Positions 1,292 through 47,144 of a stretch of DNA of 64,000 bases are shown here, in pieces; within the stretch, counting starts at the first letter, position 1; each line of letters begins with the position of its first letter. Made by a program: the position numbers and the translations under genes. This DNA comes from a virus. The notes under the pieces were generated by a model, which ran no database searches, was not told the origin of the DNA, and worked only from the letters and a program-made list of their open reading frames with translations. Location of the stretch: positions 45,079 to 109,078 of the IMG/VR virus record IMGVR_UViG_3300034418_006779. One strand, given 5' to 3'.

Positions 1292-4200
1292 ATGGCTGAA
1301 ACAACTCAAAATACAAACCCAGTATTTGATAAAATATTACAGCAAAATAGAGCGCAGGCACTCCACGGAGCGTCTGCGTCTAAAGGTTTAGGAACAACTC
1401 TAGTAGACGGTCCAATCTACACAGGATACGACGATCCTAGAATGAGCCTACTCACCCAATCGGGGTGGGAACAAGCACGGAGAGCAATCGGAGGTGGACT
1501 AACCTTGGGTGCTTTAGGTGCTATGAAGAACACATATCAATTCGCACATGATATTGGTAACTTCTTCGAAACAATGTTTAGTTCTGATAAATCTATGTCA
1601 GATTTATTGGATATGGAACAATACTCTCAATCAACGATCGCAAAGAACTTAGGAGAGATCATTGATGAGAAGAGAGAAGCATTTGCAATCCATAAAGCAG
1701 ATCCCAATGATGTGTTTGATTGGGATGATTCAGGATTTTATTGGCAGTCAGTTCAAGGAATCCTAGACTCAGCGGTACAGTTTGCTCTTCCTGGTGCAGG
1801 GGCAGTAAAGGCTGTAGGGGCTATTCAAAAAATACCTAGACTATTTAGCTACTTCAAGAAAACAGAGAAGTTAGGACAAATGCTTACAGCAAGTAAGAGT
1901 GGACAACAGATCGCCAACTCTGTTGGTTCAGGTCTTTTAAGTAACCATATAGAAGGTACTTCTATGGCTTCAGAGATCTACAACAATACCATGAAGAACT
2001 TTGAGAAAGATATTCAGAAGTATAGAGATAGTGAGGGTAGAGAAGGAATTTCTTTAGAAGAAGCTAAAAGGAGATCAGCATTCTCTGCTAACTCATTTAG
2101 AGAATGGAATAGACTCATGTTCTTTACTGACGCAGTTCAGTTACATGGTCTATTTAAAGGAAAAGGTTTCACACGAAATTTATTAGATGCCAAAGGATTT
2201 AAAGAAAGTGTAGGTAACTTAACTAAGTTCAATACTAAAAACCCAATTTATGGTTTCCTTAAGCAAGGAGTAACAGAGGCCGGGGAAGAGATTGTACAAG
2301 GAATTAGTCAGCGTCTTCATGAAGATATGGCTAAAGGAGTAGACACCCCTATTGGGGAAAGACTCCTAGATTATGTCACTGATTCAGAGTTACTATATGA
2401 AGGATTCTTAGGATTTTTTGGCGGCGGCCCTCAAAAAATAGCCACCCAGTTTGCACAAGAAGGAGATGCAGTTCTTACTGGTAAGTTTTTCACTAAAAAG
2501 TACTGGAATGATAAGAATGCCATGTACAACCAACAGCAGGAAATAATCAAGGAAACTAATGATTATTTTAAAAGCGAGTTAGGAAGACAAATGGTAGGAC
2601 ATAATATTGCTGCCGATGCTGTTATTGCGGGCCGTCCTGAGTTAGGGGAGATTGCCACTAATCGTGAGTTCTCTCGACTAGCTACAATGCATTTTGAAGC
2701 TGGTACAACCGAGGTGTTCGAACAACACCTAGATGACATTGCTAACAACGCAGAGTACCGAAAGGAGAATAAATATAGTGACGATGATGCGGCTAATGCC
2801 AAAGAGTTACTGAAAGAGTTAGATCGTTTAGAGCAGCAATGGATGAAGACATCCCGATATGCTGTTGACGACAAACATCAAGTAAGACTCTTCGAGACAA
2901 ACAATATCATCAATAGCCTAGAGAAGCTGGTTGGATCCCAGCAAGAACATATAGATAAGCTAACGCAGAATCTTAATGAAACTATTATAGACGATGCTGT
3001 TGAAGCAGCCAATCTAAAAATTAGTAATGAGAAGAAGGACGCACTTCGTAAAATCTTATCTATAGATGAGCAAGGCAAGCTTAGAGCTCCAGTAGATGAG
3101 CTGGCTGAAGCTGATTTACATCCTGCTCATGCTAAAGCTGTAGCTGAGGTATTCGATACTCAATCTCAAGTAACAGATTTAAAAGACCAGCAAGCTATTC
3201 TTGATGAAATGAATAGTAAGTTGAGAGACGCCAAAAAAGATAGGGCTAACTATAACTCTTTTGGATATCGTAAATCTTATATTGAACATAAGAAGAGGCA
3301 GGAAAAAAGGCTGAAGGATAAGATTAAAAGAGAGGAAGCTGCTGAAAGAAAACAACGACGTGCAGATAAAAAACTAAAGAGAGCTGAGACAAGTAAAAAG
3401 CTTAAAGGAAAAGCTAAGCAGCTTGCTAAGAAAGGAGAACTTAAGAAAGAAGCTAAGAAGATAATGGATAAGGCTGCTACTAAAGCTAAGCTAGCTCCTG
3501 AAAATAAAAAGTCAGAACCGTTACAGACTGTTGATCCTGCAACTAAACAACCAGTCACACCAACTCAACCTACTCCTAATGAATATATAGGAAAAGAGAG
3601 AGGAACGCTGCTGGCAGAGAGAAGTAAGAAAGAAGCTGTACTGAGTAGTAGCAAACCTGAAGAAATAATGCCTGTACTAGACGTACTAGCAGAGATAGGA
3701 GATGCGCTTGAGGAGCTCAGAGCTCAGCCATTTCAGCATAGTGGTAAATATGAATTTGCCCCACCAGCACATATCAAAGATGCTCTGGATGAGATGATCA
3801 ATAGATCTAAGAGAATTATTCTCAATGAAGATACTAATGAGTATGAGCTGAAAGATGAGAACGGGAAGGTTGTCAGAACTTACAAAAGAGTAAGTAATGT
3901 TAGCAATCCTGACTATGATGATTCTAATAAGTATGCTCATCATGCTACTCAGATTGGTTCAGCACTAGACTTGATTGCTAGAGATTTCTTTTCAGGCAAT
4001 CTCAAGGCTTGGGACACATACTTAGTTGCAGACAAATTCGATAAGACTAAGAGTTATCCAGTGTTTAAAGGCAAGAAAGAGTTTGAACACTATCTTCATC
4101 AACTGGAAGATCTGAAGCTTGTTCTTAAAAGTAAAGGGCAAGTCATTATTGATCCAGGAATTGTAGATGGGAAAACATCTGAGTTTAAATTAGCTGATGA

Positions 4201-10200: not shown

Positions 10201-13200
10201 CGAAACTAAGAGTGGTAACACTATTAAGAAGCATTTTCAGGGGCTCGACAAGTTCTACATGCACAAGATGTTTGGAGCCAACAAGAACATGACTGATCAA
10301 CAAAGAGAGTTGGCCATTCAGAAAGCAGCTCTTGATATGGAGATCAACTACATGATTGCAAATGCAAACATGTATATGTTATTTATTGGTGACCCAGCTT
10401 TGTATTTTAAACCTAGCATGACTAAGGATCTCATCAAGAAATATCCAGACCCTATTGATTTTATCAGGGCGTATCATTCTGAGGTTAACGATGAGTATAG
10501 AATCAATGTGGTCAAAGATACATTCGATAATGCTGGTAAACGTCTAGCAGGGGATATTGCTCCTGGATATGAGTTAGCAGATACAGCTAACCCAGATTTT
10601 GCAGATGATCTTGAGATTAATTATATGTTCTTAGGCGATGTTAAAATTGCTAGTGTAGAAAAAGAATACTTAAAACGATTAGGATTGGGAGATGCCTATG
10701 ATGGGCTCGAAGGTGCAGATGGTCAGGAGTATACTCACTGGTCAGAGCACTTAAAAATACTATATCATTTGGGTAGACTGACAGATGATGATTATGAGAG
10801 AATTACAGATAAACTAGACAGAGGTGAAGACCTGAATGATTCAGATTTGAAGACTGTTCTTCAGCCAATGAAACCTGTTTATGTTAACAACAGATGGGAT
10901 GAGGGATTAAGTACTTACATCAGAACCTATGTTAAAACGTCTGCATTCCCTCTACTTCCACAGCTGACTCGTGATCTCGAAATAGATAAGCTAACTCAAT
11001 TTTTAGAAGAAAGATACCAAGATCCAGAAGCACTGACAATACATCGCGTTCCTATGATGTCTGGTACTAAGGTTGGTGGATTTAGCGATGCCGTTGAGTT
11101 CATGAATGCAGATGGTACATTTAAGACATCGGAAGAATTGGCAGAGGCCGGAGCCTTTAATCAAGATCTACACGTGATTACTGTACCTCGCCAAGGATTT
11201 AGAATTCAGCAAGATGTTCCTTACAAAGAAGATAAAGATGAGATCAACCGTGTATCGCAGGCTGCTAAACTTTTGGTAGTAAACATGATGGGGCAGAAAG
11301 GATTTGAACCCAAGAGGTTTATTATAGATAATAGAATCTATGACCTCGTTCCTTCTATTAGAGAGTTCTTCATTGATGATGAAGGCAATGAAATAGACCA
11401 TGACTTCTCAGGAGAGGATATGAATAAGATCTATAATGCCATATTCAAATATCTGTATGAGGAAGACATGAGAGGATTCGTAAACGAATTCATGGAAGAG
11501 AATGGAGAAGACCTCGACTGGAATAAAGTAAAGGATGTAATTAGAGACGAGGCAATAGCACGTAACTATCCACCAACAATGGTGGACGCTATTGATATGT
11601 TTGATGATGTAGCATTCTTGAAGTTCTCACCATACGCTCTACAGTTTCAAGCCTTGCTTAACTCTATTGTTAATAACAGAGTGTTGAAGAAAACAATGCC
11701 AGGCCACTCATACGTACTTGGATCAGAGGAAGGATTTAGAATTCAGGAAGGACTTACAGAAGATAATCTTAAGAATACTGAGATTATCTATACTGGTTCA
11801 TTCAATGGTAAATATCTACAACCCGCTAGATACTTGACAGTAGAAAATGCTAATGAAAAAGAAATTGCTGATGCTAGAAAGGAGAACAGAATTCTTAAAG
11901 AGGAGAAAGATGGTGTAGAAGTAGAATACATTGTAACCGAAAAAGGTAAAAAAATTATGAGGGGAGATCAAGTATTTGTAGCTCCTAGATTTAAAATTGA
12001 AGATAAAAACGGGAAAGAGCGTTATATTGATCTTAGAGAAACTTATTCAGATGGTACATATAAGTGGTTGAACAAGGACAAGAACGGAAGGCTTACTCTC
12101 AAGAAGAGTAAATTCTCTAAACAAGCTCTTGAGATGTTTGGAATGCGTATCCCTAACCAGGGTCCTAACTCCACAGCATATATTGAGATTGCAGGGTTCT
12201 TACCTAAGAAGATGGGGGACTTGATTATTGCACCTCGTGACTTCACAGCTCGAATGGGTTCTGACTTTGACGTTGATAAACTGTACTGTTATCAATATTA
12301 CTATTCTGTTAACAAGTCTGGTAAGATTGTGGCTTATAAAGGAAAAAATGATAAGAAGAGATTAAAAAATGCATTGGTGAATGTTCACATGACTATTACT
12401 AGTAACCCGGATGAGAATGTACAGAAAGCTATCAGTACTCCATTGAATGAGTGGAGACTTGGTGAGATTGGTAATACCATATTAGGATTCAGAGAGAAGA
12501 GATTTTCTGAAAGAGATCCTGAGACTGGCGAAGTTATTCCAGCTAATGAATCCTTTAGTGGAATATCCTCTGAGTATCAGAGAACTAAGTATCTCAATGC
12601 TCGTGCTGGTAAGATTGGTGTAGGTGTATTCTCTCAGGATTCAGTATTTAATGCTATGCTGCAGCAGCATAGAGTTACCTTAATGAGACAACAAACTGAC
12701 GATTCTTGGGATGACCATTTCGAAAAGTTTGGGGATCAGGACTCGAAGCTAATGTACACAACGGACACTACTGATGGAACACTAACTAAGATGGAGGTTA
12801 TCTCTGCTTGGCAGTCTGCGGCGGTGGACGATGAAACATTACAGATTCTTTATAAGCTGAATGTTAACTCTACTACTATGCCGGTTGTTAGGTATATGAA
12901 CCAGATTGGTTTTGTTGAGGAGACTCCATGGTTCTTGACTCAAGATGCTATGTTTGACTACTTAGACTTTTTGAACCAAGGTATGAAAAGAGCTGATGCG
13001 GTTAGTGCAGTATTTAAAAAGTACAACATCAAATTTCCTGATGAAGCTGAAAAACTGAAGGAGTTTAAGAACGATTTATATGAAGAAGCTAATGAAATTG
13101 GATTAGATAAACTCAAGCACATGGTTGAGAATGGCCCTGACTCTGATGATTATACTCCAGAAGAGTATGCTAGAATTCAAGGAGCACTGTTCTATAAGTT

Positions 13201-20475: not shown

Positions 20476-20492
20476 ATGTAAAAATATTTTAG

Positions 20493-20567
20493 GTGCGGGG
20501 GCCTGACTCGAACAGACGGTCTCTGGGTCTGAGACCCAGCGAGATACACCAACTTCTCTACCCCGCA
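20493..20567 (-). tRNA. tRNA-fMet-like body with aberrant anticodon loop (UCA at 34-36)
   Basis: TGCGGGG TA GAGA AGTTGGTGTA TCTC G CTGGG TCTCAGA CCCAG AGACC GTCTG TTCGAGT CAGGC CCCCGCA C; no encoded CCA. Confidence 0.8.
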
Positions 20568-34887: not shown

Positions 34888-37800
34888 TAGAATAAATCGT
34901 TAAAAGATTCAACGGACTGAATAAGTTTGTTAGCCTCTTTAATGTAGTAATCATAATTGATCTCTACGTCTTCTAACTTCTCATCAGTAATAAGATTGAA
35001 ATCCGATAAAAGATTTCCTACATAGACTCCTATCTTACGTCCATCGGTGAACCGCTTATACATCGGCACTCCTGATTTCGATACGATTAGCCTATTGATC
35101 CGCTGCAGAGGGGAATCCTCACCATCTAATTCGTGGCAAAGCATGGACGTTTTTTTACACCTAACGAATACGAAGAAGTCTTCGACTTTATCGTGGTTCC
35201 GTATAGTGACTTCGACCGGCGTGCCATTCTGCACATACTCTTGTACGGCAATGGGCACAACGCGTTTGCTGTGGTCTTTATTTATCCATTTATTAACCTC
35301 GAACGCACCCTTTTGTTTAAGCTTTCCAGACGTCGTGATCGCACAGTAATTATTTACGTTTGCTACAAACATCTTTCTATATGTTTCATACTCAAGGGTA
35401 AGGTTGGTGAGAGACTCCCACTCCTCGCAGATCTTGATGATGGCGTCGTAATCGACTTTCGAGATTATACACTCGAGACCATCAGTGTTGGCCATGATGA
35501 CCTGGGCTCCTGCTTTTGTAAGCTTTTCAGCTAACATGGCTAAGAGCAACTGCCCATTAATGGTAATGGACATTGTAAATTGGCGGTCATATAGGAATGA
35601 CCATTTGTCGTTGGATTTACCGTAACAGCATAATCACATATTTCTATGTGGGCTGGACTATATCATCATCCCATAGGGATGGAGGACGCTCTAGCTGGTT
35701 ATTAAGAACACTATAGTTCTCCAGTAGTCTCTGCACGTTCCTGAAGTGTACCTCAGGCTTCGCTCAGGATTGCCATACCTTTCGGCTTAGGTTTCCCTGA
35801 ATTCATCCTCTGCTAACTCAACTATTACTAGCTGAGAGGGCTTACTGAAAATAGTAATCCTTTGTAAGGTTTTCCAGTTTTAGTTGCTTTATTCACATTA
35901 GGCGCACGTAAAATATGAGCAGGTAATCCGTTTCTCCCGTTAGGGTTTCGAAGAATCATGTGATCAATTAATTCAAACGATTTTTTCAAGGATTGTCGCT
36001 CAAGCTCTGCCGCAGAAGTATACTTACCAAGTAGAGTTTTAGATTGGTTATACACATAAACATCAGGCACTCTAGCTGAGAATGCTTTTTGTCTTTGTTT
36101 ACGTCCTTTCTGACTAATCTTTCTTGTTTTCGCTGCCGCAGAAAGCTTTTTATTATGCGCTTTCGACATTTTCTTTCCTGTATTCCATACGGGTTTCAAC
36201 CACTTAGAAACCTGCTTTTGGTATTTTTCGGGAACGTCTTTTAATCTAAGTTTAGACGCCTTCACTTGTTTAAAGTATTTTCGAGCTTTCTTGTTGAATT
36301 CTCGAAGACTTTTACCTCTATCTTGTAATTGCTTAGAGGTTAAATGAATAGAATCTGTCGCTAATGGATTAATATTAAATAACATATTCCAATCTCTAGA
36401 ATCAATATACTTTTGCTCGATAGCAAGACATTGATTCTTTGGAACACGTTGTAAAATACTAAATTCAAAGGCTTCATAACCATATTTATCAAAAGCATTC
36501 TGAAGATGCTTATTCTTATGAGTTTTATTCTCTAACGATAAAAAATGATGATAGATCCTTTTTGCAAAACTAACTCTGGTAGACCCTATGTAGGATTTAC
36601 CATTCTCTTTGCACTTTATCTCATATATTCCTGTATTCATAATAATCATAATTTAATATAATATACTATAAACCACAGTTAAATACAATAAAGATTGCTG
36701 ATTTGTGCAAAATCAAACCGAGTTTAACGCAAGCTTGTACGCCCCGTTTCTCGGATCACTTTTGGGAATAGACTTCCGTAGCTTATACAAGTCCTCGTAT
36801 ACATCACAGAACTTCTCTGAGAGATGCTCGGGAAATAAACGATTTTTGATTGCTAGGTTCGGGTAGTATGAACTTCATACCTGTTAATCTTCAGTTTCCT
36901 GAAGTGTCGGACTATATCTTTAGTTCTTTCTTCCAAATAAATTGCCTATAATGAGGTTTATACCCATTGCAAGCATTATATATGCTGGAAGCAGTAAAAG
37001 TTGGATTTTTTTCTAGAATATCCTTCATAGAAGGATAAGTATTTAACAAAGTACCTGATGAATCATATTGATGAAAAATGTATTTCTCTTTACTTTTTGA
37101 AAGTTTTCTCTTCATTACTTCTTTTTTTTCTGGGTTGTCTTCCCAGAATTTCTTGAAGAATTTAGATACTTTTTCTCTTTCTTTTGGGTCAGAAAAACGA
37201 CGTTTGCCACTTTCAGATAGAAGGTCTCTAGTTTCTTGAGCAGGCATTAATCCTCCTTCAGAATCTAGTCTAAGATTATAACCATGCTTTCTGTCTAAAG
37301 AATTAAAACACTTCATCCAATATAGTTCTCTTTTAGAGAGATCATCATATTCTGCGTATTCAATAACGAAATATTCAAAATTAGACTCTCCATGCTTATG
37401 CCAAGAATTGATTAGATAACGATTCTCATCCTTAGATTTCCTATTTAAAGATGATTTATGAGCTTGTATTCTTCTATAGACATCTACAGATTTACCAATA
37501 TATACTTTATTAGTTATTTTATTTCTGATACAGTAAATACCAGATTTTTCCTTGTGTTGTAATTGAGCTTTCATACCTTAATATAAGGTATTATTCTCAT
37601 AGTTACAACTTATTACCCAACTAATTGAACTACCGGACGCTTTTTCACACAAGCATTACCATGTGCTACTTCCTGTTATTAAGCCATATCGCTATAGCTC
37701 AGGTAGTCTCTGAACGTTCCCGCTCTGCGGGCTTCGCTGCTGATTGCCTTATTTTATAACTTAGGTTTCCAGCAATTCATCCGGTTAGGACGCAAGTTCG

Positions 37801-42959: not shown

Positions 42960-43439
42960 TCACGCAGCCTTTTTCGTCTCGTCAAGACTAGCTTCCGCAA
43001 GCTGTTGCTCGCGCTCCCTAGCCTGCTTTTGCTGCTCCAGCCTTACAATCTGCTTCCGGTAAAAGGGTTTGTTCCCCCCTGCACGAATATTACGTCTCCT
43101 GCTAGCACGGTTTTCATCGAGGAGAGAGACGAACTTCGTACGATTCTGCCGTAAAAGAGCATTACGCTCGGCATCATACACAGGAGTTTCGATTGGGACA
43201 ATCTTTACATTCCGGTTCGCCTTGATTCGAGCTCGCTGAGCAGCCCTTCGCTTCAGCTCTTTCTGATGAGCCTCCTCTGCTGCTAATTTATTTTTTCTGT
43301 TCTCGAGCTTAGACTTACTCCTGTTACTCATACGAGCAAATAGGAGAAGTTGGTCAATAAACTTTTGAGATCTCGTCAGGAGATAATTACCTCGAAATCG
43401 AGGTCCGCTTTTCTTGCGTTCAAGTCGTGATTTACGCAT
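42960..43439 (-). CDS. Highly basic hypothetical protein (C-terminal AA)
   Basis: Arg/Lys-rich 159-aa ORF. Confidence 0.65.
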   Translation of the reverse strand: MRKSRLERKKSGPRFRGNYLLTRSQKFIDQLLLFARMSNRSKSKLENRKNKLAAEEAHQKELKRRAAQRARIKANRNVKIVPIETPVYDAERNALLRQNRTKFVSLLDENRASRRRNIRAGGNKPFYRKQIVRLEQQKQAREREQQLAEASLDETKKAA

Positions 43440-43486
43440 TAAATAAATTGTTTAACGGATTAAAAGAAAACTTAAAAGTAAAAACG

Positions 43487-43659
43487 GGCGCGAGTGAGTG
43501 ATTCACTCTAACCGGAGGTTCTACCCTCTGGGGCCCTTACCAGTTACGGGTTTTTAAACTGGCGCAGCCCAGGACTCACACATCTTATCAGAGTCACCAA
43601 CACTCCAAGAAAAAGAATATTGTCCCTCCAAACGCAATGGCATCGGTTATACTCGCGCC
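43487..43659 (-). ncRNA. Structured intergenic RNA candidate
   Basis: 9-bp closing helix ggcgcgagt/actcgcgcc with internal hairpins. Confidence 0.4.
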
Positions 43660-43684
43660 GGTATCATTGTTCAATAAAAAGAAG

Positions 43685-44110
43685 GGGGGCTATGCCCCAA
43701 TAAGTCAGATGTTCTATGACGACTTCGTCCAGCTCCCTTTCAGGTTTTCCCACTCCACAAGGAAGTGTTGAGATAGGCGAAACTCTCTCGAGCAAGTCGT
43801 ATCAGGATGCTCGTCTTCTGTCCATTCCGGACCTGTTCAGTACGTCAACATATAACTCCTGCATGATTAGTACAGTTTGCCCCCTATCGCCGCTCTACCA
43901 GATTGGCGTACTCCTAAATAGGAGAGAGGATTCGAACCTCCACATCGACATTGTAATTAGCCGACTCCACGATATTTTAAGCGCACGGCGAGTTCATAAC
44001 GCTCGCGCCCCTTGCGGGGAAAATACAGTCGTCAGTCCGGGACGTGACCTGCCTACGTACGCCGATCCCGAGGATCCCGCCCTGGCTTGCGCTCAGAGCT
44101 TTCGAGAATT
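43685..44110 (-). ncRNA. About 420-nt structured RNA candidate containing a permuted tRNA domain
   Basis: Long-range helix TGACGACT/AGTCGTCA, GCAA tetraloop hairpins, terminator-like hairpin plus T-run at the 3' end. Confidence 0.55.
43885..43950 (-). ncRNA. Circularly permuted tRNA-like domain (T arm - closed acceptor stem - D arm)
   Basis: TGTCG ATGT GGAGG TTCGAAT CCTCT CTCCTAT|TTAGGAG TA CGCC AATCTGGTAG AGCG G CGATA. Confidence 0.8.
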
Positions 44111-44115
44111 TCTCT

Positions 44116-44346
44116 TTATACTCTACGTCCAACATCAAGTCGAGCGTAGCGTCTTGAAGCCAATGAATGGCCTCGACCTTGCGAAATCATAGAATTATAA
44201 TCCCCTCTACGAGGATCTGACTTTCTCCAATAAGTATTGGATCGTTCTTTACTTTTAGCTCTGCCAATCAGCGCCAACGTAGTGAGAATAAGTGCCATGG
44301 AAAGTACATAGTTTCCAGGCATTCCGAATATTGTGAATAATAACAT
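44116..44346 (-). CDS. Small membrane protein
   Basis: Hydrophobic N-terminus, basic tail. Confidence 0.45.
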   Translation of the reverse strand: MLLFTIFGMPGNYVLSMALILTTLALIGRAKSKERSNTYWRKSDPRRGDYNSMISQGRGHSLASRRYARLDVGRRV

Positions 44347-44464
44347 GGTTTCGATCTTTTGTGGTTAAAAGATAAAGGGGCCGTCTCATCGAGACGTACC
44401 CCAGTACCTTGCGCGTTAAACATCAGAAGTAAGATTCCGGGGGTTGGATAGCCACGCTGTCGGG

Positions 44465-47100: not shown

Positions 47101-47144
47101 CTGGATGGAGAGGAATCGAACCTCTCTTAAGACCGTCCATCCAG
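47101..47144 (-). ncRNA. tRNA minihelix-like element (acceptor stem plus T arm only)
   Basis: CTGGATGG ACGGTCTTAAG AGAGG TTCGATT CCTCT CCATCCAG. Confidence 0.7.

Follow-up and report, generated by a model that had tools for sequence, protein, structure and literature searches.

The closest described counterparts of the element reported here are the YrlA RNAs (RF02553), i.e., the tRNA-mimicking Y RNAs that accompany Ro60 (Rsr) in bacteria and mycobacteriophages (Chen et al., 2014; PMC4201824). In that work, a four-arm layout was drawn for YrlA and a Ro60-binding motif, GNCGAAN0-1G, was placed near its 5' end, while the published YrlA genes lie within 4 kb of the Ro60 (TROVE) gene. RNase P cuts the M. 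smegmatis YrlA, and a 7-bp acceptor has been linked to this cleavage (PMC4201824). YrlA-type mimics are known in print as Ro60 partners, and the role of their tRNA-like half is a standing question. Here, we report a module with the same tRNA-like half in a non-coding gap of a phage record in which no Ro60 gene was found.

The window analyzed, i.e., the whole stretch of DNA, comprises the last 64 kb of a 109,078-nt IMG/VR record that is rated 61% complete. Pfam matches to crAss tail ring proteins 2 and 3/4, together with ORFs of 2,181 and 6,255 aa and group I introns, identify the source genome as that of a crAss-like phage. Given that the known host range of crAss-like phages is Bacteroidota, the host is probably a member of this phylum. 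A related phage is represented by a Logan contig of 109,877 nt, suggesting that the record may be nearly whole despite the 61% estimate. From 20.5 kb onward in the window, the genes are oriented on the minus strand. The two group I introns map within the DNA polymerase gene or next to it, at 35634-35865 (minus strand; 92 bits) and 37632-37786 (minus strand; 59.9 bits).

The module lies in an untranslated gap with the following surroundings:

44346-44116, minus strand: upstream 76-aa ORF with a hydrophobic N-terminus and no family match
44115-43440, minus strand: untranslated gap of 676 nt between the 76-aa and 159-aa ORFs
43686-44115, minus strand: candidate RNA of about 430 nt, untranslated, from the stop of the 76-aa ORF to a terminator-like hairpin
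43439-42960, minus strand: downstream 159-aa ORF, strongly basic

The 676-nt gap is non-coding. Translation of the minus strand under table 11, table 4 or with TAG read as Q gave no ORF that spans it, and a hidden gene under either of the latter two codes was rejected on these grounds. Codon-usage log-odds trained on the long ORFs of the phage were negative in every frame of the gap; among the neighbors, six of seven genes scored between +0.09 and +0.22, and the seventh scored 0.00. A plus-strand ORF of 158 aa (43716-44192) also had a negative codon-usage score and no family match. Its sole database relative, P0003, is a 100-aa protein that is 99% identical and covers residues 50-149 only. P0003 is a gene call on another, near-identical contig, a read-through of 43863-44162 with identical sequence across the tRNA-like module. 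As this ORF scored negatively and only part of it is called as a gene in the near-identical contig, we rejected it as a real gene.

Reading of the minus strand, folding of the isolated core and a partial YrlA match together gave the following anatomy:

43974-43885, minus strand: four-arm tRNA-like module (direct reading, isolated fold, partial YrlA match)
43974-43969 with 43890-43885, minus strand: closing stem UAUCGU/GCGAUA (fold of the isolated core)
43965-43944, minus strand: V hairpin (fold of the isolated core)
43950-43946 with 43889-43885, minus strand: alternative closure UGUCG/CGAUA (direct reading)
43941-43925, minus strand: T arm GGAGG-UUCGAAU-CCUCU, five of five pairs, preceded by AUGU (direct reading)
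43924-43911, minus strand: sealed acceptor CUCCUA-UU-UAGGAG, position 72 joined to position 1 (direct reading)
43910-43909, minus strand: UA, corresponding to U8-A9 (direct reading)
43908-43888, minus strand: D arm CGCC-AAUCUGGUAGAGC-GGCG (direct reading)

The permuted T-acceptor-D module is real. A sequence-only reading of this DNA had listed, in order, the anticodon-stem 3' strand, the T arm, an acceptor fused at positions 72 and 1, the D arm and the anticodon-stem 5' strand, and direct reading of the minus strand confirmed this arrangement. The 72/1 junction contains neither a spacer nor a discriminator base. Since a two-base loop cannot form, the acceptor is effectively a 5-bp stem with an AUUU loop. 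The nucleotides that make tertiary contacts in tRNA are in place (U8, A14, A15:U48, G18, G19, A21, U54, U55, C56, A58 and G53-C61), with seven such contacts kept, and the helices are intact (five of five pairs in the T arm, five to six of six in the acceptor, and five to six in the closure). The intact helices and the seven kept contacts argue against free decay. When folded alone, the 101-nt core adopted the four-arm layout, in which the UAUCGU/GCGAUA closure was thermodynamically preferred and the UGUCG strand formed part of the V hairpin upstream. The earlier assignment of UGUCG/CGAUA as the anticodon-stem closure therefore holds as a possible pairing, but not as the favored one. In the predicted fold, the GG of the D arm can dock on the T loop, the T arm stacks on the sealed acceptor, and the whole protrudes from a 5-6 bp closing stem at the site of the anticodon arm of a tRNA. 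The module has no free 3' end, CCA or anticodon; with its acceptor sealed by the T-acceptor-D permutation, it was rightly described as an unchargeable tRNA elbow. The 72/1 junction is unlikely to be an assembly chimera, as the independent assembly that encodes P0003 has the identical sequence across it.

The sequence-only reading had further placed the module within a single structured RNA of about 420 nt, nested inside an 8-bp long-range helix. The flanks comprise about 165 nt on the 5' side and about 190 nt on the 3' side, with the following predicted structures:

43980-44099, minus strand: 5' cluster of G+C-rich hairpins, pairing probabilities 0.69-0.99
44099-44079, minus strand: hairpin with a GCAA loop (thermodynamic prediction)
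44076-44064, minus strand: hairpin (thermodynamic prediction)
44063-44056 with 43987-43980, minus strand: stem closing a three-way junction that contains CCCC-GCAA-GGGG (44019-44008)
43699-43884, minus strand: 3' flank as a long irregular hairpin (purely thermodynamic prediction)
43676-43698, minus strand: terminator-like hairpin GGGGC-AUA-GCCCC (43698-43686) followed by CCUUCUUUUU (consensus scan)
43470-43672, minus strand: second untranslated domain, a 9-bp G+C stem (43659-43651 with 43495-43487) enclosing about 155 nt, then a U run

Several of these parts had been seen correctly. The GCAA-loop hairpins are present, one at 44019-44008 and another with its loop near 44090, as is the terminator-like hairpin, with its U run, at the end; the flanks, judged much larger than a Y RNA stem, likewise show no evident stem of that kind. 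The complement that makes up the long-range helix (44034-44027 with 43724-43717) does exist; however, about 1.4 such complements are expected among site pairs in 430 nt, and the helix competes with local hairpins that have pairing probabilities of 0.84-0.90. Moreover, a 491-nt fold (44130-43640) was no more stable than dinucleotide shuffles (z = +0.26). Because the fold equals its shuffles and the long-range helix is expected by chance, a joint structure of flanks and module as one RNA of about 420 nt is unproven. The 5' domain folded alone gave z = -1.13. The 3' flank holds GACGAAG (43729-43723) as well as the 3' arm of the 8-bp helix, and pairing of GGGGGC (43884-43879) with the terminator 3' strand (43690-43685) has an ensemble probability of 0.96. 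Only the 43470-43672 part of the gap stands out in folding energy (z = -2.71, with three of 200 shuffles folding as well). This domain, about 190 nt long and directly upstream of the basic 159-aa gene, matches no Rfam family.

The Infernal search with the YrlA model that had been proposed as a check aligned model positions 30-81 with 43942-43891 at 19.1 bits, with E-values of 0.73 in a search of 1.8 kb and 0.0105 genome-wide. The alignment reproduced the T-acceptor-D core exactly, but the whole-model score lies far below the gathering score of 69 bits. No other Rfam family, and neither tRNA nor tmRNA, was matched at the module. With a phage YrlA whose record also encodes Ro60 (L005), the model aligned over its full length at 35 bits. 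The reported absence of a Ro60/TROVE gene from the window extends to the whole 109-kb record at E-values up to 10, and RtcB, DUF2828 and Band_7 are likewise absent from these 109 kb, bearing in mind that the record is rated 61% complete. GNCGAAN0-1G was not found 5' of the module. The sole GNCGAAG is the GACGAAG at 43729-43723, which lies 3' of the module, i.e., on the wrong side for YrlA, with about 0.3 occurrences expected by chance. There was no match to GGTTACTTCG between 43000 and 45000 at up to two mismatches. As for a long terminal stem, the closure of 5-6 bp is the only one seen, and the long-range pairs are thermodynamic predictions.

To place the module among other phages, we surveyed sequences in which a T loop is followed by a D loop within 18-27 nt. 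This pattern gave at least 115 matches; among those listed, about 18 were true T-acceptor-D modules, making this class a common one in phages, and the rest were adjacent tRNAs. TROVE is encoded in 13 of the 18 module-bearing phage records, and in four of the five that are at least 90% complete, among the matches listed, so that the module as a rule accompanies Ro60. A 5' motif, G(G)UUACUUC(G), is common to the Ro60-linked phage copies and also precedes arrays of two to four Y-like RNAs beside Bacteroidota TROVE genes. Since the flanking stems of these phage RNAs did not align in MAFFT, they were compared by counting this handle rather than with a covariance model. Using a script that scored UAC(U/C)UC within 60 nt upstream of a T arm, we obtained the following:

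T arms in Bacteroidota TROVE loci: handle in 27 of 30
modules in TROVE-positive phage records: handle in 11 of 12 (among the matches listed)
modules in TROVE-negative phage records: handle in none of five (among the matches listed)
random 60-nt windows (background): 5.8%
676-nt gap of the present phage: none throughout its length

Phages and Bacteroidota taken together, 38 of 42 Ro60-linked elements carry the handle, the phage part being counted among the matches listed. This rule may help to sort YrlA-type RNAs in other genomes. In the Ro60-linked Y-like RNAs (L151-L162 and viral loci L014-L120), the handle reads roughly GUGYYGUAGA ... UUACUUCG, often with a 3' GUUACC, and two Bacteroidota TROVE regions (L148 and L149) had no Rfam YrlA match in a first pass. 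Amongst 301 sampled Bacteroidota, 19 (about 6%) carry TROVE. Given the lack of the handle, of a 5' GNCGAAN0-1G motif and of TROVE, as well as the small number of Bacteroidota with TROVE, we did not classify the element among the Ro60 Y RNAs; it has their tRNA-like half, and the Ro60 half is missing. In the literature, we did not find YrlA-type modules without Ro60 described in crAss-like phages.

Other known systems were also considered. ARAGORN was negative for tmRNA, also at relaxed settings, and three-frame translations contained no tag-like ORF, so that a tmRNA was rejected. The third acceptor pair of the module is A-U; the tmRNA identity element is G3-U70. The comparison with tmRNAs and algal permuted tRNAs made in the sequence-only reading thus survives as an analogy of permutation, but not in the spacer, CCA and anticodon, all of which are missing here. 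A permuted tRNA gene found no backing either, there being no anticodon-loop halves, no 73/1 spacer and no match to the tRNA model at E-values up to 10. Group I intron halves flanking a permuted exon were rejected since the region gave no Rfam match at E-values up to 10 and does not resemble the phage's own introns. An ACAGCAA handle does not occur between 41006 and 58676, its window-wide count being that expected by chance, and PF11443 (DUF2828) had no match in the 109 kb. None of the 30 ORFs scanned against Pfam, which included all neighbors of the gap, encodes DUF7873, and only one permuted module folds in the gap when it is examined as a two-headed RNA.

Searches for relatives returned little. 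The DNA of 43400-44400 had no homologue among 50,697 phage records by blastn, and the basic neighbor protein had none in the same records by tblastn. This protein has P0001 (a 99% twin) and P0002 (58%; encoded on the 109,877-nt Logan contig) as its sole relatives, and neither the protein nor its alignment led to related loci in viral or metagenome contigs. The DNA polymerase exon led to none in viral contigs, and its closest GenBank phages are only about 33% identical. The DNA pattern of the module retrieved a single dimeric tRNA from metagenome contigs, and one dimeric tRNA plus a Bacteroidetes locus (L134, see below) from genome contigs. BLAST of the 430 nt against 401 Bacteroidota genomes yielded essentially T-arm matches only; blastn and nhmmer against the 115 viral loci listed with similar modules detected no similarity beyond the T and D arms; and no paralogue of the module exists within the phage genome. 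The two near-identical contigs differ too little to inform on conservation, and the one diverged relative is known from its protein, P0002.

At least seven T-arm elements, of which several are non-canonical, occur in the early region of this phage. Two otherwise well-formed tRNAs (53090-53164 and 56551-56626, both minus strand; Rfam tRNA 55.8 and 40.1 bits) have six-base anticodon loops, CUGGUG and UUGGUA (YUGGUR), for which ARAGORN reports a two-base anticodon, 'gg'. A minihelix at 47101-47144 (minus strand) consists of an 8-bp acceptor-like stem and a T arm nearly identical to that of the module, with a 12-nt linker containing GG and no D or anticodon arm. Two oversized tRNA-like genes, at 50784-50902 (minus strand; 119 nt) and approximately 52925-53085 (minus strand; about 160 nt), have intact acceptor and T arms and long insertions around the anticodon/variable region; the latter was missed by ARAGORN, and a 7-bp stem joins its ends, CGGGGCC and GGCUCCG. 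An orphan T arm, GAAGG-UUCGACU-CCUUC, is located between genes at 55495-55513 (minus strand) with no recognizable acceptor partner. A further tRNA (20492-20567, minus strand) has the anticodon UCA, which would read UGA and is assigned to SeC by ARAGORN; it sits immediately behind the 6,255-aa ORF, where the late and replication gene blocks meet, and the long ORFs are open under the standard code. No TAnnTTTG, the Bacteroidota-type promoter, was found near the gap, nor was there a recurrent intergenic motif other than the T arm or a conserved promoter motif.

Outside this phage, the Bacteroidetes locus (L134; MAG WGMZ01000024) contains a YrlA-type module that scored 51.5 bits on RF02553. It lies in a 720-nt gap (2314-3035) with a divergent WYL-WCX regulator gene on one side and a Band_7 - RtcB operon on the other. 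The gap also holds a second T arm and further tRNA-like pieces. The genome assembly had no TROVE match, and the module has no UAC(U/C)UC handle. A general link to RtcB was rejected, as none of 20 other Bacteroidota RtcB loci of the same subtype had a module within 4.5 kb. BLAST with the L134 gap retrieved relatives that resemble it over no more than the 80 nt next to the regulator gene, none of them with a YrlA match. Other unusual arrangements were observed as well. In a phage record that is rated complete and has no TROVE (L023; IMGVR_UViG_3300015263_000597), positions 11350-11470, approximately, read D arm, T arm, sealed acceptor, D arm, T arm; this double unit is enclosed by an outer GGCUG/CAGCC stem, with an anticodon arm in neither unit. 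At approximately 1390-1530 of L145 (Bacteroidota genome G219) lies a tRNA-like gene of about 130 nt with a CCA end and a long internal insertion, on which ARAGORN was silent; across the T arm and the 3' acceptor strand, it agrees with the phage module at 24 of 25 positions. In several other Bacteroidota genomes, the T-arm query segment matched in pairs about 500 nt apart.

We tentatively interpret the element as a Ro60-independent, handle-less YrlA-type tRNA mimic in the early, minus-strand region of a crAss-like phage, a reading in which our confidence falls somewhat short of even. With the same reserve, we suggest that it could be a functional RNA that presents a tRNA elbow to a host factor or stabilizes its own transcript. 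Function is favored because the helices are intact and the lack of the handle tracks the lack of Ro60, whereas confidence is held down by the other odd tRNA-derived pieces nearby, next to which the module may be a further by-product of tRNA gene turnover. Being built on a single sequence, the whole case is a lead, not a result. If the interpretation holds, the RNA would be transcribed with or just after the 76-aa ORF and would end at the hairpin at 43698-43686. Its elbow might then be offered to a host protein or RNA that reads tRNA shape, e.g., enzymes that modify the T loop or D loop or other elbow readers, and could act as a decoy or docking site; alternatively, the elbow may be a nuclease-resistant core that stabilizes the transcript. 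A bolder extension, which we consider rather improbable, is that handle-less modules form a distinct, Ro60-independent class of tRNA elbows, of which this phage would make one early in infection, the roughly 430-nt scaffold serving to trap or misdirect a host reader of tRNA shape. Its target might be a sensor, for instance, or an enzyme with which Bacteroidota respond to tRNA damage and repair it. More generally, a well-preserved crAss-like phage copy that has neither the Ro60 gene nor the docking handle would demonstrate that the tRNA-like half is able to work alone, and would provide a simple system for finding its binder.

A serious, if doubtful, contender is that the module is a non-functional relic, i.e., a rearranged piece of a tRNA gene that still looks intact, such as a tandem duplication that lost its outer halves. 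The abundance of T-arm elements in the early region, several of them non-canonical, is in keeping with such an origin, as are three other loci (L011, L129 and L133) at which tandem copies of one tRNA mimic the module layout. A relic of this kind is harder to reconcile with the absence of any flanking tRNA remnant (neither an acceptor 5' strand before the module nor a T arm after it, and no tRNA match at E < 10), with a 72/1 junction that is exact and has no discriminator base or spacer, and with the fact that every helix and tertiary nucleotide is intact. It is unlikely, to a slightly greater degree, that the module is a cis-acting element of an early transcript, i.e., a processing or stability signal, or a leader governing read-through into the basic 159-aa gene. 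Two terminator-like structures do lie between the module and that gene, the GGGGGC after the module can pair with the terminator 3' strand at a probability of 0.96, and the tRNA minihelix and other T arms occupy neighboring gaps. Pairing of a G run with a C run, however, arises cheaply by chance, and the searches gave no conserved promoter motif. Cleavage of the M. smegmatis YrlA by RNase P would provide a precedent for processing, but the sealed acceptor of the phage module, at 5-6 bp, is shorter than the 7 bp tied to that cleavage (PMC4201824).

We consider it very unlikely that the element is a true Ro60 Y RNA which uses a host Ro60 or a phage Ro60 encoded in an unassembled part of the genome. 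TROVE accompanies the module in 13 of 18 phage records among the matches listed, the present record is rated only 61% complete, and some Bacteroidota (19 of 301 sampled) do have Ro60. Nevertheless, the element is missing the handle present in 38 of 42 Ro60-linked elements (the phage part among the matches listed), GNCGAAN0-1G on the 5' side and an evident long terminal stem; the 109-kb record contains no TROVE, as opposed to a distance within 4 kb for published YrlAs (PMC4201824); and, of the Bacteroidota sampled, only some 6% carry Ro60. The least probable of the explanations, and one to which we give hardly any credence, is a decayed form of a two-headed tRNA-mimic RNA of about 360-400 nt that is linked to DUF7873. 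The comparable length and the terminator at the end recall such an RNA, and in three loci (L134, L023 and L105) a second T arm follows the D arm at 9-17 nt, that of L134 aligning weakly with 43874-43857 in a pairwise comparison. In the phage gap, however, only one head folds, DUF7873 is absent from the 30 scanned ORFs, including all neighbors, and there is no similarity beyond the T and D arms to the 115 viral loci listed.

In the module, as in two-piece tmRNAs and the permuted tRNAs of algae and archaea, the acceptor 5' strand is encoded after the T arm and the 3' acceptor strand; the module differs from these systems in having no excisable spacer, CCA, G3-U70, tag frame or anticodon. The L134 locus is similar in that it belongs to the phylum of the likely host, occupies a gap of similar size and lacks both handle and TROVE. 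Its D loop, AAUCUGGUAGAGC, is identical to that of the phage module, and its acceptor comprises 6 bp and a tetraloop. By contrast, L134 has a second T arm 13 nt after the D arm and is linked to RtcB, which the phage lacks, and the flanks of the two modules share no similarity beyond a few bases. The differences from YrlA are that the phage has no Ro60 gene in 109 kb, no Ro60-docking motif and no evident long terminal stem, that the module scored 19 bits against a gathering score of 69, and that its flanks measure about 165 and 190 nt versus about 30 in YrlA. With YrlA, the phage module nonetheless has in common the T arm, the loop-sealed acceptor, the UA, the D arm, the short closing stem and the optional V hairpin 5' of the T arm, as well as the tRNA tertiary nucleotides, including the A15:U48 Levitt pair, and an acceptor of less than 7 bp, as in the YrlA of S. 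Typhimurium.
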